A stretch of 64,000 nt of DNA from Candidatus Bathyarchaeia archaeon (GCA_035530195.1 DATKVG010000103.1:4069-68068), one strand, 5' to 3'. Positions 11,236 to 38,142 are shown, counted from the stretch's first letter. The notes: generated from the letters alone by a model not told the origin. Program-made: numbers and translations.

Positions 11236-11263
11236 TCGCGGTTTCAGAGTGGGAGTAGCAGAA

Positions 11264-13697: not shown

Positions 13698-13744
13698 GCC
13701 GCATTGGCTTAGATCCGGCCAAACGTGTTACGCTGGTGGCACTT

Positions 13745-16405: not shown

Positions 16406-18165
16406 CCGGTTCGACGCGGAAGTTGGCGGCGGTGTTGGCGACACTTTTGGCGATGGTCATGGTCCCGGGAACATGGGCTCAGGTTTCGGGCGCTGGTTCC
16501 GCGGGGCCTTCTGTTTTGATGGAGGGTGTGTGGGAGTCGAGCGGTGCGAGGCCGGGCGAGACGGTGCGGCTTGCGGCGGCGGTAACAGTCGAAGAGGGCT
16601 GGCACGTCAACGCCCACAAACCCAGCGACCCGTACATCATCCCGACGACGCTCGATCTGTCGCTGCCCGAGGGCGTTACGGCGGGGCGGACGGCCTATCC
16701 CGAGCCGACATTGTTCGAGGTGCAGGGGTTCCCGGAAAAGCTGGCGGTATACGGCGGGAAGTTTGTGATTGGGGTTGAAGTTCACGTGGGTGCGGAGGTC
16801 AAGCCGGGCACGTTTAACGTGCCGATGACGCTCCACTACCAGGCGTGCAACGACCGGCAGTGCATGATGCCGACGCAAACACCGGCGTTGGCGGAGTTGG
16901 CGGTGGTGGAACCGGGGGCTGCGGTAACGCCGCAACGGCTTGACTTGTTCGAGGGGCTGGTTTTCTCCGAAGAGGCGGGGGCCCAGACGCCTCCAGAGAC
17001 GCCCGCAACCGAAGCGCCGGCCGATACCGGCGACTGGCGGGCGTTGATAGGCGGGTTTGAAGTTGCGGGGACGGCGGGCGGGTATCTGTCGGCATCGGAG
17101 TTCCTGGCGTTTCTCGATAGAGTGGAAAAGGGCGAGGCGGAAGCAGGCCTGTTTGAGAACAAATCGGTGTGGCTTGTGGTGGTGCTGGTCATTGTCGGCG
17201 GCATACTGCTGAACCTGACGCCGTGCGTGTTGCCGCTGATCCCGATTAATCTGGCCATTATCGGCGCGGGCGCGAAAGCCGGCTCAAGACGGCGCGGATT
17301 CCTGCTTGGGGGGACGTATGGGCTGGGGATGGCGGCGACGTACGGGCTGCTGGGGCTGGTCGTGGTGCTAGGCCTTTCGAGCACGTTTGGCGCGTTGAAT
17401 TCGACGATCTGGTTCAACGCCGTAATCGCGGCGGTGTTTGTGGCGCTGGCGCTGGCAATGTTTGACGTGTTCATCCTGGACTTCAGCCGGCTACAGGGCC
17501 GGCTTGGTGTGGCGCGGTTGCAGGGTGGGACGTTCGTGGCGGCGGGCGTGATGGGTGCGGTGGCGGCACTGCTGGCGGGTGCGTGTGTGGCGCCGGTGAT
17601 CATTTCGACGATCGTCTACGCGCAGGATCAGTATGCGCGCGGCAACCGCGTGGCGTTGTTGTTGCCGTTCCTGATCGGGCTCGGGATGGGGCTTCCGTGG
17701 CCGTTTGCGGGGGCGGGCCTGTCGTTCCTGCCCAAGCCGGGGAAATGGATGGAGCGGGTGAAGTATGTTTTTGGCGCGGTTATCCTGGTGGCCGCCGGGT
17801 ATTTCGCTTATCAGACGTGGCTGTTGTTCAGCAACAAATACCTGGTGGATCGACAGGCGGTTCAGGCGAGCGCCGCGGCGTTGGACAAAGAAGGCTGGCA
17901 TTCGGATCTGGCGACGGCACTCGACGAGGCCAGGCGCGACGGGAAACCCGTCTTGATCGACTTCTGGGCGACGTGGTGCAAGAACTGCCTGTGGATGAAT
18001 GAGACGACGTTCAGGGACCCCGCGGTTAAGGCGCGCCTCGAGAAGTACGTGAAGGTGAAGTACCAGGCGGAACGGCTCAGCGAGCCGGCCACACGCGCCG
18101 TGATGGAACGGTTCGACGTGATCGGCCTGCCGACGTACGTGGTGCTGAAACCGCGTCCTGGCTGA
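16402..18165 (+). CDS. dsbD: thiol:disulfide interchange protein DsbD
   Basis: Signal peptide and N-terminal DsbD-alpha domain, a CcdA-like TM core with conserved Cys, and a C-terminal thioredoxin domain (WATWCKNC). Its start overlaps the upstream stop (ATGA). Confidence 0.85.
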   Translation: MTGSTRKLAAVLATLLAMVMVPGTWAQVSGAGSAGPSVLMEGVWESSGARPGETVRLAAAVTVEEGWHVNAHKPSDPYIIPTTLDLSLPEGVTAGRTAYPEPTLFEVQGFPEKLAVYGGKFVIGVEVHVGAEVKPGTFNVPMTLHYQACNDRQCMMPTQTPALAELAVVEPGAAVTPQRLDLFEGLVFSEEAGAQTPPETPATEAPADTGDWRALIGGFEVAGTAGGYLSASEFLAFLDRVEKGEAEAGLFENKSVWLVVVLVIVGGILLNLTPCVLPLIPINLAIIGAGAKAGSRRRGFLLGGTYGLGMAATYGLLGLVVVLGLSSTFGALNSTIWFNAVIAAVFVALALAMFDVFILDFSRLQGRLGVARLQGGTFVAAGVMGAVAALLAGACVAPVIISTIVYAQDQYARGNRVALLLPFLIGLGMGLPWPFAGAGLSFLPKPGKWMERVKYVFGAVILVAAGYFAYQTWLLFSNKYLVDRQAVQASAAALDKEGWHSDLATALDEARRDGKPVLIDFWATWCKNCLWMNETTFRDPAVKARLEKYVKVKYQAERLSEPATRAVMERFDVIGLPTYVVLKPRPG

Positions 18166-18304: not shown

Positions 18305-19129
18305 CTACAAAAGAGCGTCGTCGGCCAGTTTCTTTTCGGTTTCTTCGTCGATCCGCTGGTCCATTTCGAGGGCGGGCAGGGCGTGGGCTGGGTATCCGAC
18401 GGGTTTTGCGGGTACGCCGGCAACGGTGCAGTGAGGTGGGACGTCTTCGAGCACGACGCTGCCGGCGCCGATTTTTGCGCCTTCGCCGATGATGACGTTG
18501 CCGAGCACCTTGGCGCCGGCCCCGATCAGCACACCCTTGCCGATCCTGGGGTGGCGTTGGCCGCCGGCCTTGCCGGTGCCGCCAAGCGTGACCTCGTGCA
18601 ACATCGAGAAGTCGTCGTCGATGACGGCGGTCTCGCCGATGACGATGCTGGTGGCGTGGTCGAACAGGAGGCCTTTTCCGAGCCGCGCCCCGGGGTGGAT
18701 GTCGACGGCAAACACTTCGGACATCCGGCTCTGAAGGTACAGGGCCAGCGGTTTCCGGTCCTGTTGCCAGTAGTAATGGGCGGCACGGTAGGACTGGATG
18801 GCGTGGTAGCCCTTGAAGTAGAGGAGCGGCTGCGAGCAGCCGCGGCATGCCGGGTCGCGGGTGACGACGGCGTTGATGTCGGCGCGCAATGCGGCGGCAA
18901 TCTTGTGGTCGCTGCGAAACGCTTCGTCAATGAGGTCGCGCAGCGTAACCGCGGGGACGGTCGAGCTCCCCAGCTTGCTGGCGAGGATGAAGCTGAGCGC
19001 GTCCTCGAGTGTTTTGTGGTTCAAGACCACCGAGTAGAGGAAACTGGCCAGCATCGGCTCGGTTTGCGCGTCTCGCGCGGCTTCCTCGCGTATTTTTTCC
19101 CAAATCGGGTCGTTTTTCTGCTTCGTCAT
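18305..19129 (-). CDS. cysE: serine O-acetyltransferase
   Basis: SATase N-terminal helical domain and a left-handed beta-helix with hexapeptide repeats (GARLGKGLLFDHATSIVIGETAVIDDD...). The ATG at 19129 (MTKQKN) has an AAGGAGAG RBS. The 10 upstream codons in the ORF track were rejected. Confidence 0.85.
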   Translation of the reverse strand: MTKQKNDPIWEKIREEAARDAQTEPMLASFLYSVVLNHKTLEDALSFILASKLGSSTVPAVTLRDLIDEAFRSDHKIAAALRADINAVVTRDPACRGCSQPLLYFKGYHAIQSYRAAHYYWQQDRKPLALYLQSRMSEVFAVDIHPGARLGKGLLFDHATSIVIGETAVIDDDFSMLHEVTLGGTGKAGGQRHPRIGKGVLIGAGAKVLGNVIIGEGAKIGAGSVVLEDVPPHCTVAGVPAKPVGYPAHALPALEMDQRIDEETEKKLADDALL

Positions 19130-19245
19130 TACGCGCTCTCCTTTGAAGAATGATAGCACAGATTAAATCCGCGTATGAAGACGGACGCGGCCCGGGTGCG
19201 CCATGGCGGCCGTTATATATGACGACATAATTTTTGCTGAATGTG

Positions 19246-19445: not shown

Positions 19446-20831
19446 ATGAAAGCGTTTGATCGCGAAATAGTGAGTGGCAGCATCGTGCAGTCGGTATGGA
19501 AGCTGGCGTGGCCGATGACGCTGCTGAACCTGGTGAACGGGTCGCACAGCCTGGTCGACCACATCCTGGTGGGCAACTTCATTTCGTCCGCAGACAATGC
19601 GGCCAACGCGGCGATCGGGGTGGCGTGGCAGGTTTTCCTGGTGTTTGTGGTGATGATCGCGTCGCTTTTCCAGGGCAACAACGTTTTGATCGCGCGTTAC
19701 GCGGGCAAGCAGGATAGAGAAAAAATCAGCGGGGTGGCGTACGACGTGTTTGTGGCGTCGGTGGCAATCCTGGTGCTGGTGCTTGGGCCGCTGGGCTTTC
19801 TGTTGAGCCCGGCGCTGGTCAGGTTTGCGACGGCGGACGCGTCGGTGGCGGCTCACGCGCTGCCGTACCTGCGGATCATGTTTGTGGGCGGGGTGCCGCT
19901 GTTCATCATGTTCATGGTGACGGGCGCGCTGCAGGCGTCGGGCCAGCCAAAAGTGCCGTTGAAGCTGGGCGTGCTCACAACAGTGCTGAACATCGTGCTG
20001 AGCACGCTGTTTATTACGGGGTTCGGCCCGTGGCCGCCGATGGGGACGGCGGGGGCGGCGCTGGGAACGTGCCTGGCGCCGCTGGCGAGCGTGGGGATCG
20101 TGCTGGCGCTGGTGATGCGGCGGCGGACGATGTTTCTGCCCCCGAAACGGTTGCGGCTGCCGGACTGGCGCGTACTGCGGGCGGTGGCCCTGATCGGTGT
20201 GCCCACGGGTGTGCAGGCGGTGCTGCTTAACCTAGGCGGGGCGCTGCTGATCGGCAAGATCGGGACGCTGCCGCAGGGGGCGGCGGCGCAGGCCGCGTAT
20301 ACCATCGGGTACATTCAGCTTTTTTCGCTGGTGATGTGGGTGTCGTTCGGACTTCGGGTCGCTTCGGCCACCATCATGGGGCAGAATATCGGCGCGAACC
20401 GGCCTGAACGGGGCACGCGGGGCGTGTACGTGGCGGCGCTGATGGGCATGACGTGGGCGGCGGTGATCGGCGCGGTGTTCTGGCTGTTTCCGGGCGTGCT
20501 GCTGGGGGCGTTTCGGGCTACCGCGGAACCCTTGTTTGGCTACGGGGCGTCGTTGCTCAAGGTGCTGGCGTTTTCCGGCGTGATGCAGGTCGTGACGCTG
20601 GCGTTCACGGGCGGGTTGCAGGGCGCCGGCGACACGCGCACGCCGATGTTCATCGCGTTCATCACGCAGATCGTCATCTTGCTGGGTCTGGCGCAGGTGT
20701 TGGATATGACGGGACATCTGAGCGTGTACACATTGTGGGGTGCGGTCTTCGTGGCGCACGCCTCGCGCTTCCTGCTGACGGCGGCGGTTTTCTATCGCGG
20801 GCGGTGGAAAGGGATCGAACTGGAGGTGTAG
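19446..20831 (+). CDS. MATE-family efflux transporter
   Basis: 461 aa with 12 TM helices and a NorM/DinF-like MATE signature. It is co-directional with the downstream rSAM/GT block. Confidence 0.85.
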   Translation: MKAFDREIVSGSIVQSVWKLAWPMTLLNLVNGSHSLVDHILVGNFISSADNAANAAIGVAWQVFLVFVVMIASLFQGNNVLIARYAGKQDREKISGVAYDVFVASVAILVLVLGPLGFLLSPALVRFATADASVAAHALPYLRIMFVGGVPLFIMFMVTGALQASGQPKVPLKLGVLTTVLNIVLSTLFITGFGPWPPMGTAGAALGTCLAPLASVGIVLALVMRRRTMFLPPKRLRLPDWRVLRAVALIGVPTGVQAVLLNLGGALLIGKIGTLPQGAAAQAAYTIGYIQLFSLVMWVSFGLRVASATIMGQNIGANRPERGTRGVYVAALMGMTWAAVIGAVFWLFPGVLLGAFRATAEPLFGYGASLLKVLAFSGVMQVVTLAFTGGLQGAGDTRTPMFIAFITQIVILLGLAQVLDMTGHLSVYTLWGAVFVAHASRFLLTAAVFYRGRWKGIELEV

Positions 20832-20839
20832 CTGGCACA

Positions 20840-20980
20840 GTGAGCGAAAAGGAACAAGATTGGCTGGAACGTCTGTCGGCATGGCGGCTCGCCGGGCTAC
20901 TGCAAGTAGGTGGCGTGGCCTTTGCGGTGAAAAAGGCTATAAACTGCGCGCTTCATAACCTCAAGGGGGAAAGGCGGTAG
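20840..20980 (+). CDS. candidate small peptide ORF (46 aa) upstream of the rSAM/SPASM pair; speculative precursor
   Basis: A GTG at 20840 lies 13 nt after GGAGG. It encodes MSEKEQDWLERLSAWRLAGLLQVGG|VAFAVKKAINCALHNLKGERR, which has a double-glycine-like LSxx-L-xx-LLQVGG segment. It sits in the gap between the MATE and rSAM genes. There is no independent support. Confidence 0.2.
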   Translation: MSEKEQDWLERLSAWRLAGLLQVGGVAFAVKKAINCALHNLKGERR

Positions 20981-21055
20981 GGGCATATGTTATCATTTGA
21001 CTAACGATTATTTTGCGGCAGGGAAACCGGCCTTGGCGTCCCATGCAGGAAAGAA

Positions 21056-22246
21056 ATGATGAATTACGATTCAAAAAGCGGACGGCTGGTGGCGTGGCAG
21101 GCGGGGGAGGCGCCTGGCCCGTGGCGCATGCTGCTATTTCCCACGTTTCGGTGCAACTTGCGGTGCGCTATTTGCTCACGCGCCTGGTGGGATGACCCGC
21201 CCGCATTTAAACACGAGATGTCGGACGAACGGCTGCTGCGGCTGGTGGATGAGAGTGCGGAACTGGGGGTCCAGGAGTTCTGCATCGGGGGCGGCGGTGA
21301 ACCGTTGGTGCGCGGCGAGATCGTGATGAAACTGTGCGAGCGTATCAAGCACTACAAAATGTACGGCATCCTGCAGACAAACGGAACGCTGCTCACGGCG
21401 GACCGCATTGACCAGCTTGTGCGGATGAACTGGGACCACATCGATCTCAGTATAGACGGGCCGACCGCCGAGACCTGCGATGCTATCCGTCAAAAAGGCG
21501 TTTTCGACAAAGCAATCGCGGCCGTGAGAGAGACGCGGGCCGCCAAAACGCGCCACAAACGAAAACTGCCGCAGATGACGGCGGTGAACGTCATCACGTC
21601 ATTAAACTACGACCGTCTCGACCAGATGATAGAAATGCTTCACGAGGCGGGCGCAGATTCGGTTATCTTCAAAGACATGATTGTCTATGCCGAAGGAATG
21701 CGAGAATTTGCCTTGACAGACACGCAGACGGTGGAACTGCAAGGGCACCTGGAGAAGGCGGGCCGACGCGGGCTTGATCTGGGCCTGTCGCTGTATGGCG
21801 GGTCATATGTCCAATGCGAACAGGGACCGGGCCCGGTGGGGCAGAAATCAGACGTGAAGCACGGATACGAGCAGGCGCTTTGCGTCGAACCCTGGCTGAG
21901 CATGGTGGTGCTATGCAACGGGTCCGCGGCCCCGTGTTGCAGCTTTTGGGAAGGCATCGCAGGCAGTCTGGAAACCAGCTCTCTTAAGGATGTCTGGCTG
22001 GGACCGGAGTACACGCAATTCAGGAAAGACATACTCGAGGGGCGGGGCCCGGCGCCATGCAAGGTGTGCCAGCCACAGTACGTGCTCCAGAAGGAGCAGG
22101 TCCTGGCGCGACTGAGCAATTATGAACGGTACCAGGCGACGCCGTGGAACTTGGCGGCGCGTGTGTTAAACAGTTTGCGCCATCACGGGCTGCGTGCCAG
22201 CTTCGCACGCGGCAAAGAATGGCTCCTGATCCGCAAGCGCCTCTAA
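21056..22246 (+). CDS. radical SAM enzyme with C-terminal SPASM domain
   Basis: CNLRCAIC (CxxxCxxC) lies near the N-terminus. A GGGGEP glycine-rich SAM motif is present. The C-terminal Cys pattern CVEPW...C...CCSFW...C..C fits SPASM/twitch. There is no N-terminal RRE-like extension. RBS AGGAAAG. Confidence 0.85.
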   Translation: MMNYDSKSGRLVAWQAGEAPGPWRMLLFPTFRCNLRCAICSRAWWDDPPAFKHEMSDERLLRLVDESAELGVQEFCIGGGGEPLVRGEIVMKLCERIKHYKMYGILQTNGTLLTADRIDQLVRMNWDHIDLSIDGPTAETCDAIRQKGVFDKAIAAVRETRAAKTRHKRKLPQMTAVNVITSLNYDRLDQMIEMLHEAGADSVIFKDMIVYAEGMREFALTDTQTVELQGHLEKAGRRGLDLGLSLYGGSYVQCEQGPGPVGQKSDVKHGYEQALCVEPWLSMVVLCNGSAAPCCSFWEGIAGSLETSSLKDVWLGPEYTQFRKDILEGRGPAPCKVCQPQYVLQKEQVLARLSNYERYQATPWNLAARVLNSLRHHGLRASFARGKEWLLIRKRL

Positions 22247-22279
22247 GGGCGCGGGGCGGACAGCGCGCATACGACGCAA

Positions 22280-23482
22280 ATGATCAAGAGCAACGCGGGC
22301 ATAATCGATCGGCTGGACGCGTGGCGCCTCGGGCGCCGGGCTGGCCCCGTTCACGTTACGGTGTATCCCACCAACCGCTGTAATCTTCAATGCAGCATCT
22401 GCTGGCAGCGCTGGTCGGAGATCGAACGCCAGGAGTTGCCGGATGATCGCCTGATGCGCCTGGTTGACGAATGCGCGGACGCCGGCGTAGCCGATTGGCT
22501 GTTTGTCGGCGGGGGCGAACCTATGGTGCGCGGCGAACTGATGATGAAAATGATGTCGCGCATTCGGGAACGGGGGATGAATGGCTGCCTGCAAACCAAC
22601 GGGACGCTGTTTAAGGAGGATCAACTCGAGGCGCTGGTGAAAATGGGCTGGTATCGCGTAGCCGTGAGCGTGGATGGGCCGGACGAGGCGACTAACGACG
22701 CCATCCGTAGCAACGGGTCATTCGCCAAAGCTACAGCCAATATCAGGCGGCTCGTGGACATGAAACAGCGGCTTAAATCTTCATTGCCGGGCGTATGCCT
22801 GTATATGACGCTGACAAACCTTACCTACAACCGAATCGATGAGATGGTGGAACTCTCTCATTCGCTTGGTTGCGACACCACATTCAGCATCTCCGAGCTT
22901 ATCGTGAGAGGAAAACGCTGCCAGGAATTGGCGTTGACGCCGGAACAGCGCAGCAGATTGCCCGAGCACCTCAACCGCGCCGAGGACAAAGCACGCGCGT
23001 ACGGGCTCGAAACAAACTTCTCCATGTACCTTTCCACAAGCAAATCCGAAAACAAAAAAACCGCCAGGCGCAGTCAGTTTCCTCCGAACGATATGGCCAA
23101 CGCGGTGTGCTTTGAGCCCTGGTTGAGAATAGCCATCCTGCCAGATGGCCGCACGGGCCCTTGCTGCTCATTTTGGGCCGCCGATGCCGATACCCTTGAA
23201 GCCAAGACCCTCGAGGAAGTGTGGCATGGCGCATATATGGAACGGGTGCGAAAGCAGTTGATCGAGCACCAACCTCCAGCCTACTGCGCCCACTGCTCGT
23301 CGGATAACCTCGCCTTAACGCGCCAATTGAGAGAGGCTTACCGGGAGTACCGCAGCCTTCGCGGGGGCAGACTTATGGTGTATCTGGCATGTAAAGGACT
23401 GAAGAGTTTTCGACGGGATGGACTCATCAAGACCGCGGGCCGCGCCAAAGAATGGATCTTGCTGCAGAGAGGAAGACAATAG
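22280..23482 (+). CDS. radical SAM enzyme with C-terminal SPASM domain (paralog of upstream gene)
   Basis: CNLQCSIC motif, GGGEP motif, and a C-terminal CFEPW...PCCSFW...YCAHC Cys pattern. It is clearly homologous to the 21056-22246 product. Confidence 0.85.
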   Translation: MIKSNAGIIDRLDAWRLGRRAGPVHVTVYPTNRCNLQCSICWQRWSEIERQELPDDRLMRLVDECADAGVADWLFVGGGEPMVRGELMMKMMSRIRERGMNGCLQTNGTLFKEDQLEALVKMGWYRVAVSVDGPDEATNDAIRSNGSFAKATANIRRLVDMKQRLKSSLPGVCLYMTLTNLTYNRIDEMVELSHSLGCDTTFSISELIVRGKRCQELALTPEQRSRLPEHLNRAEDKARAYGLETNFSMYLSTSKSENKKTARRSQFPPNDMANAVCFEPWLRIAILPDGRTGPCCSFWAADADTLEAKTLEEVWHGAYMERVRKQLIEHQPPAYCAHCSSDNLALTRQLREAYREYRSLRGGRLMVYLACKGLKSFRRDGLIKTAGRAKEWILLQRGRQ

Positions 23483-23554
23483 CCCATGGCTCAGAATGTC
23501 CTGCCTTCCCGGCCGCAGACGGTTGCGGTACAATAACGGGTAGAGGCCTCATCA

Positions 23555-25879
23555 TTGACAACTAGATTACAAGATTCTCTGCCACCCGTGCGCGGGCTGG
23601 TCGTGCTGACCAACAGCCGCGGACAAACCTTTCCCCTGCGCGACGTCCAGCGGTGGATCAACCTGAACCGGCTGATGTTCAAGGTCGAGAAAATCGACGT
23701 GCTGGCGCGGCACGTCGACGTGCACCTGATTAAAACGCTCGTCGAATACGCCCGGCTCAACACGGCTGTCAACGCGGCCGTTTCGTTAAGGACGGACTGC
23801 TCGGGGCCGCCGCCCGACCCGGGGCTGCTACGGGACGCCGGCCTGCTCGACGTTTTTCTGACGCCCCCGGAACCCGACGGAGACTTGTTTCATCGCTGGC
23901 TTGATGCGTGCGGGAAGGCGGGGCGTGCGGTGCGGGTGCAACTGTGCGCTCCGTTCGGCGCCTCACTCGATGTGCGGGCCTTGGCGGCGCGTCTTAAGGC
24001 GGCAGGCGCCTTGGCCGTGAACATTGTGCTGTATGACGCCTTCGATACGCCTATGGCGTCGCATGGTAAAGATGTGACGTTGGCCAAGATGAACGAGTTG
24101 GCCGCGGCGGTCGCCGCACAGGAGATTGAAACCAGCCTTTACGGCTTGCCGTTGTGCCTGGTGGTGGACGAGAACATGCCCATGGCGGGCAATAGGCCGC
24201 TGTTTTTCCAGGACCATCAGCAGTACGACCGAGGCGCGTACGAGCTCGCAGCGAAACTGTACCGGCGGCCGGTAAAACGGGCCCGTCTCGCGCTCGCAAT
24301 CTTGATCGCGGGGCGGACGCAAATCGAAAACCCGCTGGATAAATGGGTAGTCGAGTGGCTGCTTGTGAACCGCCCGTGGTGGTACTGCTTCCTGATGCTT
24401 GTGCACAAGGTCACGCTGTATTCGCGGCTGATTAAGAGCCGCGTGCCGGAGGCGGCCGATTCATCGCCGCCCGAGCCGGCCCGCGAGAAGGCGAAGGGCC
24501 CGCGGTGCGGATCGTGCAGCCTGCGGCGGATCTGCGACGGCGAAACGGCCGAGTTCAAGCGCGCGCTTCCGGGCGTCGAGGTGCGGCCGCGCGACGGGCA
24601 ACCGGTGTTGTCGCCGGCTCATTTCTCGGGGCAGCGTCAGCGGCATTATGATGGAATTGACGCGCTGCGCCTGCAGGCGGAGTCGCAACGCCAGGCGCTC
24701 GTGGAGGAAGCAGGCCGGCTGATGGTACAGCAGACGCCCGAGGTTCTGCCGGCGTCTCACTACTGGGCGCTGAACACATACGGGGAGCCGTTGTCGGGCG
24801 CGGTGAGGTGGCATTCGGCGACGCACGCCGAAAAACTCAGCTCGATCGTGGCTTACATCCAGTCGCCGTTCGTCATTTCGTGCAGTATCGGCGGCGGGAT
24901 AGCGGATCTGGCCGGGTTTGCCGTGGGCAGGACCGGGCGGCTGGTTTGCCCGATGCTGCTACCCTCCCACGAGATCTCGCTTTACGTAAAGAAAGGCGGC
25001 GGATACGTGCTGATGCGCGACGGCCAGCCGGTTACGCCAGCCCAGTTGGGAAGGTCGTATTACGTGCCGGCGCTGATGCCGGACTGGAACCCGATCCAGT
25101 TGTCATTATGGAACGTGGATGGGACCATCACCACGCAGGAGGTGAGGATTTGGAAAGAGCCGGACGCGGCGCTGCCCGAACCGCGCGCAAAGTACAGCGT
25201 GGTGATTTTCAGCACGCGGTTTTCGCGGCGTCTGCAGGCGACGCTGCAAAGCCTCGCCCACCAGGAAGGGGTGGTTCCGGGCGATCTCGAGGTGGTGGTG
25301 GGTTACGTGCCGGGCATTGACGCCACGGACGACGTGCTCGAGTCGGTGCGGCTTGCCCACCCGGGGCTGCGGGTGAAACGGGCGGCGTTCCCGGAGCACC
25401 GGGTGAAATCCAAAGGTTTCATCATCAACGAATCGGTTCGCCAAGCGACGGGCGAGTGGGTGGTCCTGATGGATGCGGACATCCTGCTGCCGCCGGACTT
25501 TTTCACCCGCGTCGAGGCCGAAACCGCCGGCTGCGTGTTCATGGCGCCGGACGGACGCGTGATGCTCGATGCCGAGACGACGGCCAAGGTGCTGTTGGGC
25601 GAGATCGAGCCGCGGCTCGAGTGGCGCGCGCTCGTGAACGGCGGCGAATACCGGCACCGGGAGTCTGAGGGCATCCCGATCGGGTTCTGCCAGATTGTGC
25701 GCGCCACGTGTTTTGAGAAGGTACAATACGAAGAGTACGAACATTTTGCGGTGGCTGATTCGAACTTCGGGCTGGCGATGCGCCGGGAGTTCGGGCAGGA
25801 AAAACGCCTCAGCGGGATGCCGGTGATCCATCTGGACCACGGCGGCAGCCGGTGGTTCGGCACGCGCGGGCACCTATGA
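23555..25879 (+). CDS. two-domain protein: N-terminal ~520-aa domain of unknown function fused to C-terminal family-2 glycosyltransferase (GT-A)
   Basis: The C-terminal region has a GT2 signature (YSVVIFSTRFSRR...LEVVVG...VVLMDADILLPPDFF, with a DxD-like DAD). The N-terminal region has no motif I recognise, apart from a CGSCSLRRICDG Cys cluster. The TTG start at 23555 comes from the ORF track; internal GTG/ATG starts are possible. Confidence 0.7.
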   Translation: MTTRLQDSLPPVRGLVVLTNSRGQTFPLRDVQRWINLNRLMFKVEKIDVLARHVDVHLIKTLVEYARLNTAVNAAVSLRTDCSGPPPDPGLLRDAGLLDVFLTPPEPDGDLFHRWLDACGKAGRAVRVQLCAPFGASLDVRALAARLKAAGALAVNIVLYDAFDTPMASHGKDVTLAKMNELAAAVAAQEIETSLYGLPLCLVVDENMPMAGNRPLFFQDHQQYDRGAYELAAKLYRRPVKRARLALAILIAGRTQIENPLDKWVVEWLLVNRPWWYCFLMLVHKVTLYSRLIKSRVPEAADSSPPEPAREKAKGPRCGSCSLRRICDGETAEFKRALPGVEVRPRDGQPVLSPAHFSGQRQRHYDGIDALRLQAESQRQALVEEAGRLMVQQTPEVLPASHYWALNTYGEPLSGAVRWHSATHAEKLSSIVAYIQSPFVISCSIGGGIADLAGFAVGRTGRLVCPMLLPSHEISLYVKKGGGYVLMRDGQPVTPAQLGRSYYVPALMPDWNPIQLSLWNVDGTITTQEVRIWKEPDAALPEPRAKYSVVIFSTRFSRRLQATLQSLAHQEGVVPGDLEVVVGYVPGIDATDDVLESVRLAHPGLRVKRAAFPEHRVKSKGFIINESVRQATGEWVVLMDADILLPPDFFTRVEAETAGCVFMAPDGRVMLDAETTAKVLLGEIEPRLEWRALVNGGEYRHRESEGIPIGFCQIVRATCFEKVQYEEYEHFAVADSNFGLAMRREFGQEKRLSGMPVIHLDHGGSRWFGTRGHL

Positions 25880-25901
25880 AGCCGCACCGGGAAATTCGGG
25901 C

Positions 25902-27152
25902 ATGAAACTGGCCTTTGTCGATCTTGTTTTTTCGTGGCCGCCGCTCGGCGGGGCGCCGCTGGACCTGTACCAAACGATGGTGGGGCTGCAGCAGCTTGGC
26001 CACGAGGCGAAGCTGTTTTTTGCCGCCGACAAGGACAACTGGGACCGCGGCGAAATCCCGCCCGGCTCATTGCCGTTCGAATCGCAGCGGCTGGACTTCG
26101 ATCTGGACACGTTCACGCCCGAGCATGTTCCGGCGCGGTTTCGGGAAGCGGTGGATGCGTGGCGGCCCGACGTGGTTTTTGTTTGTTTCGGTTTTTTCAT
26201 GAAGCCGTTTGTGACCAAAGCGCTGGCGGGTTATCCGCTTGTCTCGCGCTATTACGCGTACGAGGTGGCGTGTCTTCGCGATTACCGCCAGTTTTGGAAG
26301 AAGAAGACGTGCCCCAGCGATTACGTGAACACGCCGAACGCGTGCCGGCGTTGCACCGCGCGCGCGTTGGGCAAAGACATCCGTGCGGGCCGGATCAACT
26401 CGTACGCGCGCGAGTATCTGGCTGCCGGCGCGCACCGTCCCGAATATTATGACGTGCTGGTCGAGTCGGTGAGGTCCTACAATGCCATCATCGTTTACAA
26501 CCACATGACGAAACGCCACCTGTCGGCGTTGAACGCGAACGTCCACGTGATTCCCGGCGGCGTCCACGCGGGCGAGTTTGCCTTTACGCCGCCGCCGTCG
26601 CGCAAGCCGGGCGAGAAAAAAATCATCCTGATGACGGGCCGGGCCACGGATTTCTCGAAGGGGCTGCACATTGTGCAGCGATCCGGAGCCCTGTTGGCGA
26701 AGCGCCGTGACGATTTCGAGTTTTGGGTGACAGTCGAGGCGCCGTTTGTGCGGAAGGCGCCGTGGATCCGGGCCCTGGGCTGGCACGACGTGTCGGAACT
26801 CCCGGCATTTTACCGGCAGGCGGACATTTGCGTCGTGCCGTCGGTTTGGGAAGAGCCGTTCGGGATGGTGGCGGTCGAGGCGATGGCGACGGGCCGGCCG
26901 GTGTGCGTGAGCCGGGTCGGCGGCCTTCAGGAAATCGTCACGCCCGGCGAGACCGGGTTCATCTACGACCGCAACGACGCAAAGGCGCTCGCCGGGCACC
27001 TCGAGACCCTGCTGGATCAGCCTGACCTGCGGGCGCGGATGGGCGAGGCGGGGCGGCGGCGGGTCGAGCAGGAGTACGACTGGCCGCGCATCATGCAGAA
27101 ATACTATCCGCCCATACTTGAAGGGATCGTGAAGAAAGCGAAAACCGCATGA
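25902..27152 (+). CDS. family-4 (GT-B) glycosyltransferase
   Basis: The C-terminal half has the GT4/GT1 signature EPFGMVAVEAMATGRPV...GGLQEIV. Two Rossmann-like domains. Confidence 0.8.
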   Translation: MKLAFVDLVFSWPPLGGAPLDLYQTMVGLQQLGHEAKLFFAADKDNWDRGEIPPGSLPFESQRLDFDLDTFTPEHVPARFREAVDAWRPDVVFVCFGFFMKPFVTKALAGYPLVSRYYAYEVACLRDYRQFWKKKTCPSDYVNTPNACRRCTARALGKDIRAGRINSYAREYLAAGAHRPEYYDVLVESVRSYNAIIVYNHMTKRHLSALNANVHVIPGGVHAGEFAFTPPPSRKPGEKKIILMTGRATDFSKGLHIVQRSGALLAKRRDDFEFWVTVEAPFVRKAPWIRALGWHDVSELPAFYRQADICVVPSVWEEPFGMVAVEAMATGRPVCVSRVGGLQEIVTPGETGFIYDRNDAKALAGHLETLLDQPDLRARMGEAGRRRVEQEYDWPRIMQKYYPPILEGIVKKAKTA

Positions 27153-27610
27153 ACAACTCCGAACGCGCCTGCGTCTTTTTCAGCATCGGCAGCGACTTCG
27201 CCAAAGTGGTAAAAACCGTGCGGGCGCGGCATCCGGGTGCGCGCATCACAGCGATGGCGCCACCCGATTTTCCAATGGACGGCGTGGCGGCCGACGACGT
27301 CGTGCGGATGGAAGTGCAGCGGTACCGGCCATGGCACGTTGCGCGGCTTCGTCGCCTGGCCCGTCAACTCCGGGCGGGCCGGTACGACCGGTTCGTGGTC
27401 CTTTTCCCGAGCGTGAAACTCAAGATGCTCGCCTCGTTGAGCGGCGCGCCAAAATGCGAGTGCTGGGGCGTCGACGGCCGGGTCCGCCGGCTGGACCCCG
27501 GGTTCTGGGGCAATTTCTCCGGCGAACTTCCGCGGCGGTTGCGCGGGTTTTGGCAGTTTCTCGACGTCTGGGTGCAGACGCTGCTGCGGCCGGTGAGGAA
27601 ACGGCGCTAG
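27149..27610 (+). CDS. hypothetical protein (153 aa), translationally coupled to the GT4 gene
   Basis: Its ATG overlaps the GT4 stop (ATGA). Arg-rich. No recognisable domain. Confidence 0.45.
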   Translation: MNNSERACVFFSIGSDFAKVVKTVRARHPGARITAMAPPDFPMDGVAADDVVRMEVQRYRPWHVARLRRLARQLRAGRYDRFVVLFPSVKLKMLASLSGAPKCECWGVDGRVRRLDPGFWGNFSGELPRRLRGFWQFLDVWVQTLLRPVRKRR

Positions 27611-28221
27611 TCTTTCCTTATTGATCGCCTTGTCTTGTAGAGGCGCTCGGTGAAACCACCTTCCTGCTGAAACTTTCTCGCTTGGGTGGCAATTTGGCGA
27701 TCAAGGAGGAACGAAGCCACTGTGATGAGGGCGAGAGCGGCGTTGGCGGCGATTTCGGGGAAAGTGGACGGAGTGGACCTAGTGGACGAAGTGGACGGAG
27801 TGGACGCGGACATTTTTGAGACTGGGCGGCCGTGAATACTCTTTGCCCATTCGGCTACTGCGTCGGCGGTTGCGGGGCGAGACACTATCAAAGCGGTCCT
27901 TCGTGGATCGTTGCGATCCCACTGCGGAAGGCGGCGTTGGCGCAGAAAGTCTTCGTAATCCAAGCGCAGTTCTTCCAGACTGGAGCGGGCTACGCTTGTG
28001 AGTTTTAACTCCGTCTTTTTCGAGGTGGCCGAAGTCTGACTTCCTTCTGCAATGTTCTGGACACCTGATCTGGCGGATTGGACCATTTGCTCATACATCT
28101 TGTGCGACCTGACGTATTTGTCGCAGAAACGGACAGTGACGTCATAAACTAACTGCGCCACCTGAAAGCTCTTCAGTTTCCGAAACCCACCGTGTTTCTG
28201 TATAAGCGGCTCTTTGTCCAC
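27607..28221 (-). CDS. four-helix-bundle protein (TIGR02436 / 23S-IVS / Avd-like family) with Ser/Thr/Pro-repeat C-terminal extension
   Basis: The N-terminal 120 aa show the family signature (...ARSGVQNIAEGSQTS...SLEELRLDYEDFL). The C-terminal extension contains STPSTSSTRSTPST, encoded by a 9-bp tandem repeat. GTG start. Confidence 0.6.
   Translation of the reverse strand: MDKEPLIQKHGGFRKLKSFQVAQLVYDVTVRFCDKYVRSHKMYEQMVQSARSGVQNIAEGSQTSATSKKTELKLTSVARSSLEELRLDYEDFLRQRRLPQWDRNDPRRTALIVSRPATADAVAEWAKSIHGRPVSKMSASTPSTSSTRSTPSTFPEIAANAALALITVASFLLDRQIATQARKFQQEGGFTERLYKTRRSIRKD
27763..27807. repeat. 5 x 9-bp tandem array AGTGGACNN inside the four-helix-bundle gene
   Basis: agtggacgg agtggacct agtggacga agtggacgg agtggacgc. 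On the coding strand it encodes STPSTSSTRSTPST. Confidence 0.75.
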
Positions 28222-28222: not shown

Positions 28223-28267
28223 GTCCACTCAGTCCACTATGTCCACTACGTCCACTGCGTCCACTAC
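28223..28267. repeat. 5 x 9-bp tandem array GTCCACTNN immediately upstream of the four-helix-bundle gene start (inverted relative to the internal array)
   Basis: gtccactca gtccactat gtccactac gtccactgc gtccactac. It overlaps the tyrS stop codon. Confidence 0.75.
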
Positions 28268-29532
28268 ACAAACTTCAGCAGGTGGTAGTTCTTTTTCCCT
28301 TTGCGAATGACGGCGATGTTTCCTGCGCAAATCACGCCTTCGCTGGTGTTGATGTCGGCGTCAAGGCGTTCGTTGTTGAGGTAGAATCCGCCGCTTTCGA
28401 TGAGTCTCCTGGCCTCGCCTTTGCTCTTGAACACGGTGTGCTCGACCAGCACGTCGACCAGCGGGCGGTTCTTCCCCAGTTCGTCGCGCGAGATCTCCGT
28501 GGAAGGGACTTCGCTGAAGATCTCGGCGAGTGTGGCTTCGTCGAGCCCCTCGAGGGAGCCGCCGAACATGGCTTCGCTGGCCCGGACGGCGTTTTCGATC
28601 GCGGACTCCCCGTGAACTATCCGGGTGAGTTCTTCGGCGAGCCGGCGCTGTGCAGCCCGTTTCTCGGGCTCGTTAACGAGGCGCCGCTCGTACTCGGCGA
28701 TCTCGTCGGGAGCGAGAAACGTGAACAGCCTCAGCCACCGGGGCATGTCGGCGTCGGCCTGGTTGATCCAAAATTGGTAGAACTTGTATGGCGAGGTCCG
28801 GGCCGGGTCCAGCCAGATGTTGCCGCCTTCGCTCTTGCCAAACTTGGACCCGTCCGACTTCGTCACCAGCGGAAACGTGATCCCGAACACCGTGTATTCT
28901 CTTACGCGGCGGATCAGGTCCATTCCCGCCACGATATTGCCCCACTGGTCGCTGCCGCCGACCTGGAGCCGGCAGTTCTGGGTGTCGGCCAGATGGAGAA
29001 AATCGTAGGCCTGCAGGAGAACGTACGAGAACTCGGTAAAACTCATCCCGTGCTCGCGGTCTTCGATGCGCCCGCGTACCGACTCTTTGGCCAGCATGAC
29101 GTTTATCGAGAAATGCTTGCCAACGTCGCGCAGGAAATTGAGCAGCGGCATGTCGCAAAGCCAGTCGGAGTTGTTGAGGAGTCTTGCGGCGCTGGGCCCG
29201 TGGAAATCCAGGAACCGCTCGAGCTGCATCCGGATGCCTTCTGCGTTGGCCTCAACCTGCTTGCGGGTCAGGAGTTGGCGCTCCTGCACCTTGCCGCTGG
29301 GGTCGCCGATCAGGCCGGTCCCCCCGCCAACGAGCACGATCGGCTTGTGGCCGCGCCGCTGGAAATGGACCAGGCCCAGGATGGGAAGCAGGCTGCCGAT
29401 GTGCAGGCTGTCCGCCGTCGGGTCAAACCCGCAATACAGGGTGAACCGGTCCATCTCGAGGAGTTTGCCAACCTCCTCATGGGTCACCTGACTGATAAAG
29501 CCGCGCCAGGATAGCTCTTCAAACAGCGTCAT
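28264..29532 (-). CDS. tyrS: tyrosine-tRNA ligase
   Basis: The class-I HIGH-equivalent motif (FDPTADSLHIGSL) and KMSKS-equivalent (KFGKSEGG) are present, with a C-terminal S4-like domain. The ATG at 29532 has a GGAGAC RBS. The longer ORF-track start was rejected. Confidence 0.9.
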   Translation of the reverse strand: MTLFEELSWRGFISQVTHEEVGKLLEMDRFTLYCGFDPTADSLHIGSLLPILGLVHFQRRGHKPIVLVGGGTGLIGDPSGKVQERQLLTRKQVEANAEGIRMQLERFLDFHGPSAARLLNNSDWLCDMPLLNFLRDVGKHFSINVMLAKESVRGRIEDREHGMSFTEFSYVLLQAYDFLHLADTQNCRLQVGGSDQWGNIVAGMDLIRRVREYTVFGITFPLVTKSDGSKFGKSEGGNIWLDPARTSPYKFYQFWINQADADMPRWLRLFTFLAPDEIAEYERRLVNEPEKRAAQRRLAEELTRIVHGESAIENAVRASEAMFGGSLEGLDEATLAEIFSEVPSTEISRDELGKNRPLVDVLVEHTVFKSKGEARRLIESGGFYLNNERLDADINTSEGVICAGNIAVIRKGKKNYHLLKFV

Positions 29533-29768
29533 TGATTGTCTCCGCCCATTACGCCTAGCAGCCCGTGGGAAATGGCCGCGTGCAGACCGCGACGTCTTTT
29601 GCCGCGGGCTGCCAGGGCCCGGAATTTCGAACGCTACCACATTACCGAATCGGGGTCAAGAATGACCCTAGGGAAACCTGGTACGGCGGGCTGCAGTTCT
29701 TTCATAATTCTTGATTTTGTGTCAATGAAATCCTGTTGACTTTTCCAGCGTGTATCGGCAAACTAGAT

Positions 29769-32176: not shown

Positions 32177-32695
32177 TTACGGGTCCGACAGCGCGTCAAA
32201 CATCGCCACGAGTTCCCGGTGCGCCCGGAACGGCAGCGGGGGGCGATTTTCGCGCGAGAAAAACCGCAGGTCGACCACGTCCGAGCAGGGCTGCAACGTG
32301 CCGGACCATTCGCCCACATAGTAGCCGAGAACCGTCACGGCGCCGTAGAAACGGCTCTGCTGGGTGCTCACGCCGACAAGGCGGAGCGAGGCGATATCGA
32401 GCGTGGTTTCTTCGCGCATCTCCCGCACAATGGCTTCCTCGGTGGTCTCGCCGATTTCGACAAACCCCCCCGGCAGCGTCCATTCGCCCACACACGGCTC
32501 CACCGCCCGCTGCGCCAGCAGCAGGTTGTCGTCTCGCGTGATGAAACAACACACCGCGGGCACGGGATTGCGGTAATAGAACCTGCGGCAGCGGTCGCAC
32601 CGCGGCTGTTCCTTCTCGCCATCGAAGCACAGCCTCAATCTCCCGCCGCAAATCGGGCAATAGTTCCAGCAGAAATCTTCAGGATCGAATGCCAT
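32177..32695 (-). CDS. NUDIX hydrolase with N-terminal zinc-ribbon (NudC-like)
   Basis: A CxxC...CxxC zinc ribbon (CPICGG...CDRCRR) precedes the Nudix box GGFVEIGETTEEAIVREMREETTL. Confidence 0.8.
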   Translation of the reverse strand: MAFDPEDFCWNYCPICGGRLRLCFDGEKEQPRCDRCRRFYYRNPVPAVCCFITRDDNLLLAQRAVEPCVGEWTLPGGFVEIGETTEEAIVREMREETTLDIASLRLVGVSTQQSRFYGAVTVLGYYVGEWSGTLQPCSDVVDLRFFSRENRPPLPFRAHRELVAMFDALSDP

Positions 32696-32797
32696 GCCCT
32701 AACTCTAGCAGGCTTCATGCCAAACGGCAAAAGCCAATCGTCCCAACTGTCCCGCAGTCCCACGTCCGGCGCAACACAAGAAACCTGCCGGCAGCGG

Positions 32798-37341: not shown

Positions 37342-38142
37342 ATGGCAAAGCCGGTCGCGTTTGCGGTGGGTGCACACCCGGACGACATCGAGTTTATGAT
37401 GGCGGGCACGTTGTTGATGCTGGGCCGGGCGGGGTATGAACTGCACACGATGAACATCTGCAACGGCTCGTGCGGAACCGCCGTCGAGGATCGCGAGGCC
37501 ATCATCGCCCGCAGAACCGCCGAGGCCCGCGAGGCCGCTCGCTCGCTCGGCGCGCATTTCCACGAGCCGCTGGTGGACGATATCGATCTGTTTTACGAGC
37601 CGGGCGTCCTGCATCGGGTCGCGGCAGTCGTGCGGGACGTGAAACCGGCCGTGCTGCTGACGGCCTCACCGCAGGATTACATGGAAGACCACATGACGGC
37701 GTCGCGCGTGGCGGTGACGGCGGCGTTCTGCCGGGGCATGCGCAATTTTCCAACCGACCCGCCGCGCCCGCCCATCGACGTCGAGGTGACGGTGTACCAC
37801 GCCCTGCCCTGGGGGTTGAGCGACAGCCTCAGGCGTGTTGTCCGCGCCGGTCAGTACGTGGATATCGCGCCGGTGCTTGAACAGAAACGGGCCGCGCTGG
37901 CGTGTCACAAAAGCCAGAAGGAATGGCTCGACTCGAGCCAGGGGCTCGACAGCTACCTGACCACGATGGAAGAAATGAGCCGCGAGGTCGGCAAACAGTC
38001 GGGCCAATTCGAGTACGCCGAGGGATGGCGGCGTCATCTGCACCTGGGTTTTTGCTCGGAGGCGGCCGACCCGCTTTCCGAGGCGGTTGGCAAACACGGA
38101 ATCATATCGCGGGCCTACGAGGACGGCCCGAACAGGGCTTGA
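37342..38142 (+). CDS. PIG-L/LmbE-family N-acetylglucosaminyl deacetylase
   Basis: The AHPDDIE metal-binding motif sits near the N-terminus. Length and fold fit the LmbE family. Confidence 0.8.

Follow-up and report, generated by a model that had tools for sequence, protein, structure and literature searches.

Radical SAM (rSAM) enzymes and glycosyltransferases encoded side by side on one strand raise the question of what they make together, and of how many neighboring genes take part. For the window, that is, the whole 64-kb stretch of DNA analyzed here, the sequence-only reading had proposed a block of seven consecutive genes acting on either a glycosylated peptide or a modified glycan. Our data show that this block was drawn too wide and that the conserved unit comprises five genes (21056-27610), encoding two rSAM proteins (rSAM-A and rSAM-B), a 774-aa fusion protein, a GT4 glycosyltransferase and its 153-aa partner. 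This five-gene operon is real, conserved and restricted to the uncultured phylum Hydrogenedentota, and what it makes is most likely a glycan of the cell surface, not a modified peptide. The features discussed below are as follows.

19446-20831, + strand: MATE efflux transporter (PF01554, TIGR00797)
20840-20980, + strand: 46-aa ORF with a GTG start, probably non-coding
20832-23572, no strand: variable cassette, spacer plus both rSAM genes (blastn against L006 and L090; GC3)
21056-22246, + strand: rSAM-A, 396 aa (PF04055, PF13186)
22280-23482, + strand: rSAM-B, 400 aa (PF04055, PF13186)
23555-25879, + strand: 774-aa fusion protein, whole gene (GT2 is the sole Pfam match, from aa 547)
23555-24739, + strand: fusion aa 1-395, pseudo-radical-SAM domain (hhalign to rSAM c7; triad gone)
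24740-25156, + strand: fusion aa 396-534, all-beta sandwich-like domain (predicted secondary structure; invariant GGGIA..GF motif)
25193-25879, + strand: fusion aa 547-774, GT-A (GT2-like) domain (DxD; HLDHGG motif)
25902-27152, + strand: GT4-family (GT-B) glycosyltransferase, 416 aa (PF00534, PF13692)
27149-27610, + strand: 153-aa GT4 partner (putative GT9-like N-terminal half-domain plus basic amphipathic C-terminal helix)

Extent of the conserved unit

Six of the seven genes were confirmed with unchanged boundaries, all on the plus strand; what did not hold were the 46-aa ORF and the MATE gene as a conserved neighbor. The 46-aa ORF is probably not a gene. None of 88 related loci contains a homolog of it (best tblastn E 2.1), it matches neither Pfam nor the rSAM profile, its GC3 (0.62) is below that of every real gene of the block, and in the close relative L006 its position is taken up by a mere ~100-nt spacer. 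The MATE gene product is a member of the MATE efflux transporter family (PF01554, 124.8 bits in two stretches; TIGR00797, 152.3 bits against a cutoff of 147.4; ~12 predicted hydrophobic segments), and the gene probably lies outside the functional unit because it is adjacent only in some close relatives: it adjoins the block in the window and in L006, and is missing in L090, L083, L086, L079, L084 and L088. In L090, an equally close relative, an opposite-strand GH127 gene occupies the MATE position. A gap of 224 nt separates the MATE gene from rSAM-A, and the subsequent gaps are 33 nt (rSAM-A to rSAM-B), 72 nt (rSAM-B to fusion), 22 nt (fusion to GT4) and -4 nt, an overlap, between GT4 and the 153-aa ORF. 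Transmembrane segments and signal peptides are absent from all five proteins of the unit. No nucleotide-sugar gene is found within the operon, and rmlB and rmlD were observed 5 kb downstream of it. A PADLOC search for defense systems returned only partial pVip matches to the rSAM core (47-58 bits) and no match for the other five proteins.

The arrangement of the five genes is beyond chance, because the same order recurs in L089 (identical), in L090 and L006 (85-89% DNA identity) and, with protein identities as low as 35-50%, in L083 and L086. Within this conserved order, the rSAM pair is a replaced cassette with sharp edges relative to the close relatives. In blastn comparisons, the sequence is collinear at 85-89% identity up to 20829 (L006) and again from 23573 onwards (L006 and L090), and between these points (20832-23572) only patches of ~69% identity in swapped order were detected. 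The cassette rSAM proteins are 44-53% identical to those of the close relatives, with inverted gene order; in L006 and L090 alike, rSAM-B is matched by the first rSAM (53% identity). GC3 is 0.73 and 0.69 within the cassette versus 0.80-0.86 in the flanking genes, and overall GC falls to 0.59 at 21-24 kb.

The five proteins of the unit

rSAM-A and rSAM-B are members of the radical SAM superfamily with an intact radical-SAM cluster site. Both exceed the gathering scores of PF04055 (70.5 and 79.9 bits, respectively, against a cutoff of 29.5) and PF13186 (41.3 and 34 bits); the CX3CX2C triad begins at residue 33 in rSAM-A and 34 in rSAM-B, and that of rSAM-A (C33/C37/C40) is invariant in the clade. 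The two proteins have the same architecture and share 37% identity, in agreement with their first description as paralogs. The other clade-invariant cysteines of rSAM-A are C276, C294, C295, C335 and C338, and the SPASM CX2CX5CX3C block is cut down to CX2C. Despite the PF13186 match, neither protein contains the full SPASM set of seven or eight C-terminal cysteines for AuxI and AuxII; as judged from the sequences, the remaining C-terminal cysteines would suffice for one auxiliary cluster, which fits a twitch-like, truncated SPASM domain of the one-cluster type defined in PMC9012708. Twitch enzymes, such as BtrN, work on sugar-like small molecules (PMC9012708).

The clade of rSAM-A and rSAM-B is isolated and phylum-restricted, with ~25 members, all from Hydrogenedentota, after which scores fall from 162 to 59 bits, and with a conserved basic C-terminal tail. 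rSAM-A reaches no NCBIfam equivalog (the best, TIGR04317, gives 124 bits and has its cutoff at 380); the NCBIfam matches of the rSAMs are all far under cutoff, and no equivalog points to a substrate. Their best-scoring relatives are mixed, including the peptide and cofactor maturases PqqE, MftC, SkfB and the W-cofactor maturase together with sugar enzymes. Neither Pfam nor NCBIfam detected an RRE/PqqD domain in the rSAMs, in which only ~30 residues precede the triad, and the scan of window ORFs revealed no sulfatase; both results bear out remarks of the sequence-only reading. Orthology to anSME, which that reading had raised against its own proposal, was rejected, since TIGR03942 lies outside the best 25 NCBIfam matches and so below ~50 bits against a cutoff of 349, and the PDB match to anSME is confined to the core (E 4e-4).

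The fusion protein had been described as an unknown 520-aa domain fused to GT2. The GT2 assignment stands from aa 547 onwards, and the N-terminal part can now be placed: it consists of a pseudo-radical-SAM domain and, after it, a beta-sandwich. Residues ~10-395 are homologous to a true rSAM family, c7 (hhalign E 1.2e-17, with clean controls). The domain contains no CX3CX2C triad, having no cysteine before residue 100, and no GGE motif, the region aligned to 'QGGEPT' of c7 reading 'DVLARHVD'; four auxiliary-cluster cysteines (C201, C318, C321 and C327) are retained. The N-terminal domain is therefore rSAM-derived and catalytically dead, and not an rSAM enzyme. Foldseek searches with a model of this region returned generic TIM barrels rather than rSAM enzymes. 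In an exhaustive search of 1.84 billion representatives (89 hits), the pseudo-rSAM domain occurred only in the ~760-820 aa fusion architecture. Residues 396-534 are all-beta in the structure model, carry the invariant GGGIA..GF motif in the alignment columns and have no Pfam match even at E 10. The C-terminal domain is a member of the GT2 (GT-A) glycosyltransferases, with a GT-A fold, a DxD motif (D640, D642), the C-terminal HLDHGG motif and a Pfam match above cutoff.

The fourth protein is a GT4 (GT-B) family member, matching PF00534 (99.8 bits) and PF13692 (86.4 bits), with an N-terminal PF13579 match of 29.2 bits just under the cutoff of 29.7. Its gene lies 3' of the fusion gene in ~25 loci, and the protein is 91-94% identical in L006 and L090. 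The 153-aa partner is translationally coupled to it, its ORF overlapping the GT4 stop by 4 nt, and the ATGA overlap is kept in L004, L086, L088 and L090. This partner belongs to a family of 20 members, all Hydrogenedens-like, the profile of which matches heptosyltransferase II (1psw) over aa 22-114 (E 5e-4); the single sequence matches RfaF (E 9e-4). The protein thus resembles the acceptor-binding half of a GT9 enzyme, a likeness that is marginal at E 5e-4. With a hydrophobic moment of 1.66 and lacking a transmembrane segment, its C-terminal tail is predicted to form an amphipathic helix.

A proposed surface glycan and its rivals

The genomic context of the fusion family supports a glycan reading, in that its relatives lie beside Wzm/Wzt (TagH-type) exporters. 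A TagH/Wzt-type ATPase gene (c2) was found no more than 10 kb from the fusion gene in 24 loci and a Wzm-type permease gene (c12) near it in seven, and typical related operons carry the fusion gene co-oriented with both. Genes for GT2, GT4, methyltransferase and GFO/IDH/MocA sugar oxidoreductase proteins also recur near fusion relatives. Of the two products first considered, the modified glycan is favored by this Wzm/Wzt, GT2, GT4 and methyltransferase context, and the glycosylated peptide is not.

We propose, at what we judge to be even chances, that the operon builds a glycoconjugate at the cytoplasmic face of the membrane and tailors it by radical chemistry; this glycoconjugate would most likely be a lipid-linked surface glycan resembling O-antigen or teichoic acid. 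rSAM-A and rSAM-B would remove a hydrogen atom from a sugar, which could be a nucleotide-sugar or a residue on the growing glycan, to yield an oxidized, epimerized, deoxygenated or otherwise tailored residue in the manner of BtrN and BlsE. The inactive ancestral rSAM pocket of the fusion protein may recognize the rSAM substrate or dock an active rSAM; its GT-A domain would next add a sugar with inversion, GT4 and the 153-aa partner would attach one or more further residues at the membrane surface, and export would depend on a transporter encoded elsewhere (Wzm/Wzt in the relatives). The rSAM pair probably sets a variable, strain-specific feature of the product, because it is swapped between near-identical backbones. 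More tentatively, we speculate that this is an undescribed glycan machinery, in which a glycosyltransferase has captured a dead rSAM that binds an auxiliary Fe-S cluster and that, in complex with the active rSAMs, recognizes the radical-tailored sugar or exchanges electrons with it. If this is true, the exchangeable rSAM pair would be a serotype-like cassette through which Hydrogenedentota diversify their surface glycan.

Four other explanations were weighed against this glycan proposal. Cyclitols are glycosylated by GT4 enzymes in aminoglycoside pathways, which favors a small-molecule glycoside, such as an aminoglycoside- or nucleoside-like product or a glycosylated cofactor, for which twitch rSAMs would tailor a sugar or cyclitol, the glycosyltransferases would build a pseudo-oligosaccharide and the MATE protein would export it. 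The operon is small and set among housekeeping genes (window ORFs scanned), the best natural-product exporter models of NCBIfam for the MATE protein are SolL (137 bits) and WgkD (47 bits), both far under their cutoffs, and the twitch enzymes BtrN and BlsE belong to such pathways (PMC9012708). However, no scaffold enzyme (cyclase, aminotransferase or NRPS/PKS) was found within the operon or close to it, the MATE gene does not stay with the module, and the fusion family is phylum-wide, with several paralogs per genome beside Wzm/Wzt genes, as is typical of envelope polymers. We therefore regard such a product as improbable.

It also seems quite unlikely that the substrate of the rSAMs and glycosyltransferases is a protein, folded or secreted, such as a 747-aa PKD-domain surface protein, an S-layer protein or a pilin. 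SPASM/twitch enzymes like anSME do modify proteins, cytoplasmic GT-A and GT-B enzymes are able to glycosylate proteins directly, and the PKD-domain gene (29920-32163) lies downstream of the operon and is syntenic in L006 and L090. Against this, tyrS and a four-helix-bundle gene, both housekeeping genes in convergent orientation, lie between the operon and the PKD gene, the PKD gene is not found with the module in the distant loci L083, L086, L079 and L088, and the export context in the relatives is of the polysaccharide type.

An unrelated mobile rSAM cassette may instead have landed beside an ordinary glycosyltransferase operon, as the differing composition of the replaced cassette and the many fusion-family and fusion-GT4 loci without a nearby rSAM gene would allow; the sequence-only reading had itself named such coincidence as a possible outcome. 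We consider this very improbable. In ~21 of ~82 independent loci, spanning several fusion subfamilies and two rSAM types (the c7 type in 15 loci, the window type in at least six), the gene immediately upstream of the fusion gene encodes an rSAM, and all rSAM matches fall within 5.6 kb of the fusion gene in flanks searched up to 10 kb. Moreover, replacement always affects the same slot, with incoming genes from the same rSAM clade. Because of this recurrence, the pairing of window-clade rSAMs with the GT4/153-aa pair in L088, where the fusion gene is missing, and the rSAM-derived N-terminus of the fusion itself, the adjacency of rSAM and glycosyltransferase genes is not coincidental. Finally, a RiPP or glycopeptide pathway, in which the rSAM/SPASM proteins cross-link or oxidize a precursor such as the 46-aa ORF, the glycosyltransferases glycosylate it and MATE exports it, is highly improbable, given that the 46-aa ORF is missing in every related locus including the closest relative, that no small ORF is conserved in the eight loci with the rSAM clade (the shared ones all being shadows of real genes), that no peptidase was found, that the RRE is lacking and the conserved cysteines are enough for one auxiliary cluster only, that MATE does not travel with the module and that the relatives adjoin polysaccharide exporters.

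Comparison with known systems

The surface-glycan proposal finds its closest parallel in Wzm/Wzt-dependent O-antigen and galactan synthesis and in TagGH-dependent wall teichoic acid synthesis, where soluble or peripheral GT-A and GT-B enzymes likewise act in series in the cytoplasm. An ATPase gene of this type is a neighbor of the fusion gene in the 24 related loci, and the nearest structural neighbors of the GT-A domain (TarP, RmlT, WrtF and K4CP) come from such pathways. The window differs, however, in containing no Wzm/Wzt genes within its 64 kb and, among the window ORFs scanned with Pfam, no initiating phosphoglycosyltransferase of the polyprenyl-phosphate type, ligase, anchor step, polymerase or terminator. 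The locus may work like a Wzm/Wzt pathway, and we do not file it as a member of one. A literature search found no radical SAM partners and no glycosyltransferase-fused pseudo-rSAM in described Wzm/Wzt-type pathways, and we know of none.

For the rSAM pair, two groups of enzymes are instructive. The twitch enzymes BtrN and BlsE (a sugar-nucleoside, cytosylglucuronate decarboxylase) share with rSAM-A and rSAM-B the CX3CX2C core, C-terminal cysteines for one auxiliary [4Fe-4S] cluster and a gene position next to glycosyltransferases, and BlsE, at E 5e-8, ranks high among the PDB sequences matching rSAM-A. The similarity is nevertheless limited to the rSAM core, TIGR04466 (BlsE) being far below cutoff, and the isolated clade and its basic C-terminal tail set the pair apart. 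PqqE, MftC, SkfB and anSME share the SPASM Pfam match above gathering and are the best PDB and NCBIfam neighbors by score; rSAM-A and rSAM-B differ from them in lacking an RRE, a precursor and a sulfatase, in their incomplete seven-cysteine SPASM set and in nearing no equivalog cutoff.

The 153-aa protein recalls Alg13/Alg14 and the N-domain of WaaF in its putative acceptor-binding GT-B N-half, its predicted membrane-seeking helix and its translational coupling to a glycosyltransferase. It differs from the Alg13/Alg14 pair in that its GT4 partner by itself is a complete GT-B enzyme with two domains, and its likeness to GT9 is the marginal one described above. The dead domain of the fusion protein is most reminiscent of the halobacterial 'pseudo-SAM/SPASM' family TIGR04347, in which an rSAM-derived fold has similarly lost the SAM-cluster cysteines and kept the C-terminal ones; the true-rSAM relative c7 scores best against this model (72.9 bits, far below the cutoff of 525). 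In contrast to TIGR04347, the dead domain described here is joined to a beta-sandwich and a GT-A glycosyltransferase.

Extent and conservation of the gene block

The sequence-only reading of this stretch had grouped seven co-directional genes, beginning with a MATE exporter, into one candidate system. All of its listed ORFs are present on the + strand at 19446-27610, and their domain identities and flanking genes are as follows.

Genes of the block and its flanks
18305-19159, - strand, cysE, flanking housekeeping gene unrelated to the block
19446-20831, + strand, MATE transporter (Pfam and NCBIfam)
21056-22246, + strand, rSAM-A, radical SAM (rSAM) protein with a SPASM-model match (Pfam/NCBIfam)
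22280-23482, + strand, rSAM-B, radical SAM protein with a SPASM-model match (Pfam/NCBIfam), 37% identical to rSAM-A
23555-25879, + strand, fusion protein of 774 aa, sole database match GT2, from residue 547
25902-27152, + strand, GT4 glycosyltransferase
27149-27610, + strand, 153-aa ORF, 4-nt overlap with the GT4 stop
27607-28221, - strand, four-helix-bundle '23S IVP' protein, flanking, unrelated to the block
28264-29640, - strand, tyrS, flanking housekeeping gene unrelated to the block

The search for this gene order in other genomes, proposed in the same reading, was productive: rSAM-A, rSAM-B, the fusion, the GT4 and the 153-aa ORF keep their order in the related loci L089 (an identical contig), L090 and L006 (85-89% DNA identity), and again in the distant loci L083 and L086 (35-50% protein identity). 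The MATE gene adjoins this unit only in the window and L006, its position in L090 being occupied by an opposite-strand GH127 gene, and the 46-aa ORF that follows it has no counterpart; the unit therefore comprises five genes, not seven. For this reason the MATE protein was rejected as a conserved exporter of the system; by Pfam it is not a Wzx/PST-type flippase. No Wzm/Wzt-type exporter was found within the 64-kb window, whose remaining ORFs are housekeeping genes, including rmlB/rmlD, RecG and ATP synthase.

Several neighbours may be recorded here. The '23S rRNA IVP' gene, whose product carries a TIGR04258 suffix domain, runs convergently into the 153-aa gene, overlapping it by 4 nt, and is itself kept in L006, L089 and L090. 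Downstream of the operon, L006 and L090 also preserve the synteny of a gene (29920-32163) for a 747-aa protein in which an N-terminal PKD domain is the sole match. The opposite strand carries, a few kb off, the sugar-nucleotide genes for an rmlB-like dehydratase (32798-33799) and rmlD (33796-34644), which overlap by 4 nt and adjoin a NUDIX gene (region 32177-34644, - strand); a PIG-L family de-N-acetylase (37342-38142, +) lies beyond them. Elsewhere are an MprF-like lysyl-PG synthase (5535-8249) and, at 13736-18165, two genes that overlap by 4 nt, one for an 889-aa protein ending in a PGA_cap (CapA-like) domain and one for a DsbD-like thiol:disulfide interchange protein. With its GC content of 62%, the sequence can contain long ORFs that are spurious: a 611-aa antisense ORF (9475-11310, -) without family match covers the whole of the hybrid-cluster (prismane) protein gene at 9529-11235.

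A protein 100% identical to the fusion carries the NCBI label 'Candidatus Bathyarchaeia archaeon'. The related loci, including those at 85-89% DNA identity, are all from Hydrogenedentota MAGs, so the contig bearing this label is probably mis-binned, to judge by sequence relationships. The labels of several relatives, 'uncultured Nitrospiraceae/Nitrospirales', look doubtful likewise.

A putative dead radical SAM domain fused to a glycosyltransferase

The fusion had been described earlier as a GT2 enzyme with an unplaceable N-terminus; the GT2 assignment stands, and the N-terminus can now be placed as a putative dead rSAM domain followed by an all-beta domain. In an AlphaFold2 model (pLDDT 83 for the whole protein and 87 for aa 1-395), a beta/alpha barrel-like domain with a helical extension (aa ~10-395) precedes an all-beta domain (aa 396-534), a beta-sandwich without a Pfam match at E 10, and a GT-A domain (aa 547-774). 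In many related loci the gene immediately upstream belongs to a cluster, c7, that encodes a true radical SAM protein of ~420 aa with the motif CNQRCYFC and a match to PF04055. Profile-profile comparison aligned fusion residues 27-370 with c7 over 344 columns (probability 98.9%, E 1.2e-17; reversed and shuffled controls, E 0.44 and 0.54), and the c7 HMM by itself detects fusion-family members at E 1.5e-11. The fusion is devoid of the CX3CX2C-bearing strand and the GGE motif, and its C201, C318, C321 and C327 align with four c7-invariant cysteines. Together, the homology, the two losses and the retained cysteines argue that the N-terminal domain is a dead rSAM domain, which may still hold an auxiliary cluster. 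Foldseek searches of the PDB with the N-terminal model returned generic TIM barrels and therefore provided no independent confirmation of this assignment. An exhaustive HMMER scan of 1.84 billion representatives found the domain in only 89 proteins, and the complete ones among them all have the fusion architecture of ~760-820 aa.

The fusion family comprises 61 indexed relatives, aligned almost end to end, and 117 loci among GTDB species representatives, practically all of them Candidatus Hydrogenedentota MAGs. We clustered the neighbour genes in 88 loci and named the clusters via Pfam and NCBIfam. Two recurrent operons have an exporter context: Wzm - Wzt/TagH-type ATPase - c7 rSAM - fusion, in some cases followed by GT4, GT4 and the 153-aa gene, and Wzt - GT2 - fusion - GT4 - 153aa. 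Tandem fusion genes also recur, and methyltransferases and GFO/IDH/MocA oxidoreductases are frequent nearby. In a rough NJ tree of 89 fusion proteins, subfamilies follow operon partners, and the window fusion falls in a GT4-linked group with other rSAM-pair loci. The Wzt/TagH-type ATPases (cluster c2; L074:6238-8325 and 23 other loci) that adjoin fusion genes are ~700 aa long, with a ~450-aa C-terminal extension that has no Pfam or NCBIfam match. In the tandem-fusion loci L001/L008, L009 and L014, the opposite strand bears a different, distant rSAM/SPASM gene, situated 2.3-5.6 kb downstream and next to PfkB, ribulose-phosphate epimerase and CYTH genes.

The 4-nt overlap between the GT4 and 153-aa genes is kept in distant loci. 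The 153-aa family (20 members, all from Hydrogenedens-like MAGs) gave no Pfam match at E 10 for the window protein; its profile aligns (E 5e-4) to heptosyltransferase II (1psw) in the N-terminal, acceptor half, and the C-terminus forms a basic amphipathic helix (hydrophobic moment 1.66). No TM segment was predicted in any of the five unit proteins, so their chemistry would be cytoplasmic or at the inner membrane face.

The radical SAM pair and its cassette

rSAM-A and rSAM-B belong to an isolated clade of ~25 sequences, all from Hydrogenedentota, beyond which scores drop from 162 to 59 bits. Neither approaches an NCBIfam equivalog, the best model, TIGR04317, giving 124 and 110 bits where the cutoff is 380; identities as anSME, PqqE, MftC, W-cofactor maturase, HpnH or viperin were rejected, all being far under curated cutoffs. 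The refuting case posed earlier, anSME orthology of the pair, is not upheld, anSME being absent among the best 25 NCBIfam matches. A defence system was also rejected, PADLOC showing only weak core similarity to pVip. Invariant in the clade are the SAM-triad cysteines together with C276, C294, C295, C335 and C338, which are predicted to suffice for one auxiliary cluster, the twitch pattern, not the two of a full SPASM domain (definitions as in PMC9012708). The nearest solved structures by sequence, matching in the core only, are PqqE, BlsE (a sugar-nucleoside decarboxylase), SkfB, MoaA and anSME.

The genomic contexts of the clade are mutually consistent. Two or three copies precede fusion-GT4-153aa in the window, L006, L090, L083 and L086; one divergent and one remote copy precede fusion-GT4-GT4-153aa in L079 and L084; and a single copy lies directly upstream of GT4-153aa, without a fusion gene, in L088. 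At L087:8599-13797, four paralogues occur with methyltransferase, AlgX/SGNH-like and GDSL-like genes and a sulfatase, with no fusion gene within 10 kb. TAT-signal sulfatase genes (cluster c9) also lie beside fusion genes in several loci (L007, L023, L030, L032, L070, L087), and the scanned ORFs of the window yielded none; as the rSAMs are not anSME-like, these neighbours may reflect only the sulfatase richness of the phylum.

Relative to the close loci L006 and L090, the fusion (85-86% protein identity), GT4 (91-94%) and 153-aa protein (88-90%) are well conserved; rSAM-A shares only 44% identity with their second rSAM, and rSAM-B 53% with their first, so the rSAM gene order is inverted. Collinear DNA identity of 85-89% ends at 20829 (MATE stop; L006) and restarts at 23573 (fusion start), with only patches of ~69% identity in between. 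GC3 of the rSAM genes is 0.73 and 0.69 against 0.80-0.86 in their neighbours, in agreement with a local GC dip. The replaced segment is:

20832-23572, replaced cassette (spacer and both rSAM genes), sharply delimited by the MATE stop codon and the fusion start codon

The divergence, inverted order, identity break and lower GC3 thus mark the rSAM pair as a replaceable module in a conserved backbone.

The spacer contains the 46-aa ORF, a candidate precursor under a RiPP or glycosylated-peptide reading. As a precursor peptide it was rejected, having no homologue in 88 related loci, no Pfam family match and the lowest GC3 of the region, and its position being missing in L006. Its 'LSAWRLAG' resembles rSAM N-termini; a relic of a third rSAM gene was rejected because a spacer profile search gave no signal (scores <0). 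Across the eight loci examined, the clade has no conserved small ORF beside it, and other shared small ORFs nearby proved to be shadow ORFs within real genes. The rSAMs have no RRE, as first noticed; with each defining test failed, the peptide reading is very improbable. For genome mining, rSAM/SPASM, small ORF and exporter do not on their own point to a RiPP.

A candidate module for radical tailoring of a glycoconjugate

The data above show the domain identities, the shared gene order, the descent of the fusion N-terminus from an rSAM, the exporter setting in relatives and the exchange of the cassette. We favour a glycoconjugate assembly module with radical tailoring, and infer substrate nature, reaction type, complex formation and the export route in the window genome as follows. 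The target would most likely be a lipid-linked surface glycan. The variable rSAM pair would determine a feature of it that differs between strains, and the fusion would use its dead rSAM domain either to recognise the substrate or to dock an active rSAM, with export as suggested by the Wzm/Wzt context of relatives. A small-molecule glycoside pathway and protein glycosylation, each with specific evidence against it, strike us as equally improbable alternatives. The rSAM matches in fusion flanks all lie <=5.6 kb from the fusion, mostly directly adjacent and on the same strand; that rSAM and glycosyltransferase genes adjoin by mere coincidence, against which there is also specific evidence, is less probable still than these two.

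If the glycoconjugate module is real, the partnership of rSAM enzymes with a dead-rSAM-glycosyltransferase could yield new carbohydrate tailoring reactions, and the fusion would exemplify a pseudoenzyme domain reused for substrate recognition. There would also be a first functional handle on the fusion, 153-aa and rSAM-clade families, which are core families of the uncultured phylum Hydrogenedentota, present in multiple copies, and now bear just the labels 'glycosyltransferase' or 'hypothetical'. That the cassette is swapped suggests that cell surfaces differ between strains, a matter of consequence for encounters with phages and predators in sediments and digesters.

In the literature searched we found no account of any fusion between a glycosyltransferase and a dead radical SAM domain or of rSAM enzymes in Wzm/Wzt-type operons of Hydrogenedentota, and nothing relevant on Hydrogenedentes with rSAM and GT. 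For peptides, cofactors and antibiotic sugars there is ample literature on radical SAM chemistry; for cell-envelope glycans there is, to our knowledge, hardly any. The components all come from known superfamilies, and the locus is best read as glycan biosynthesis with an unusual twist.
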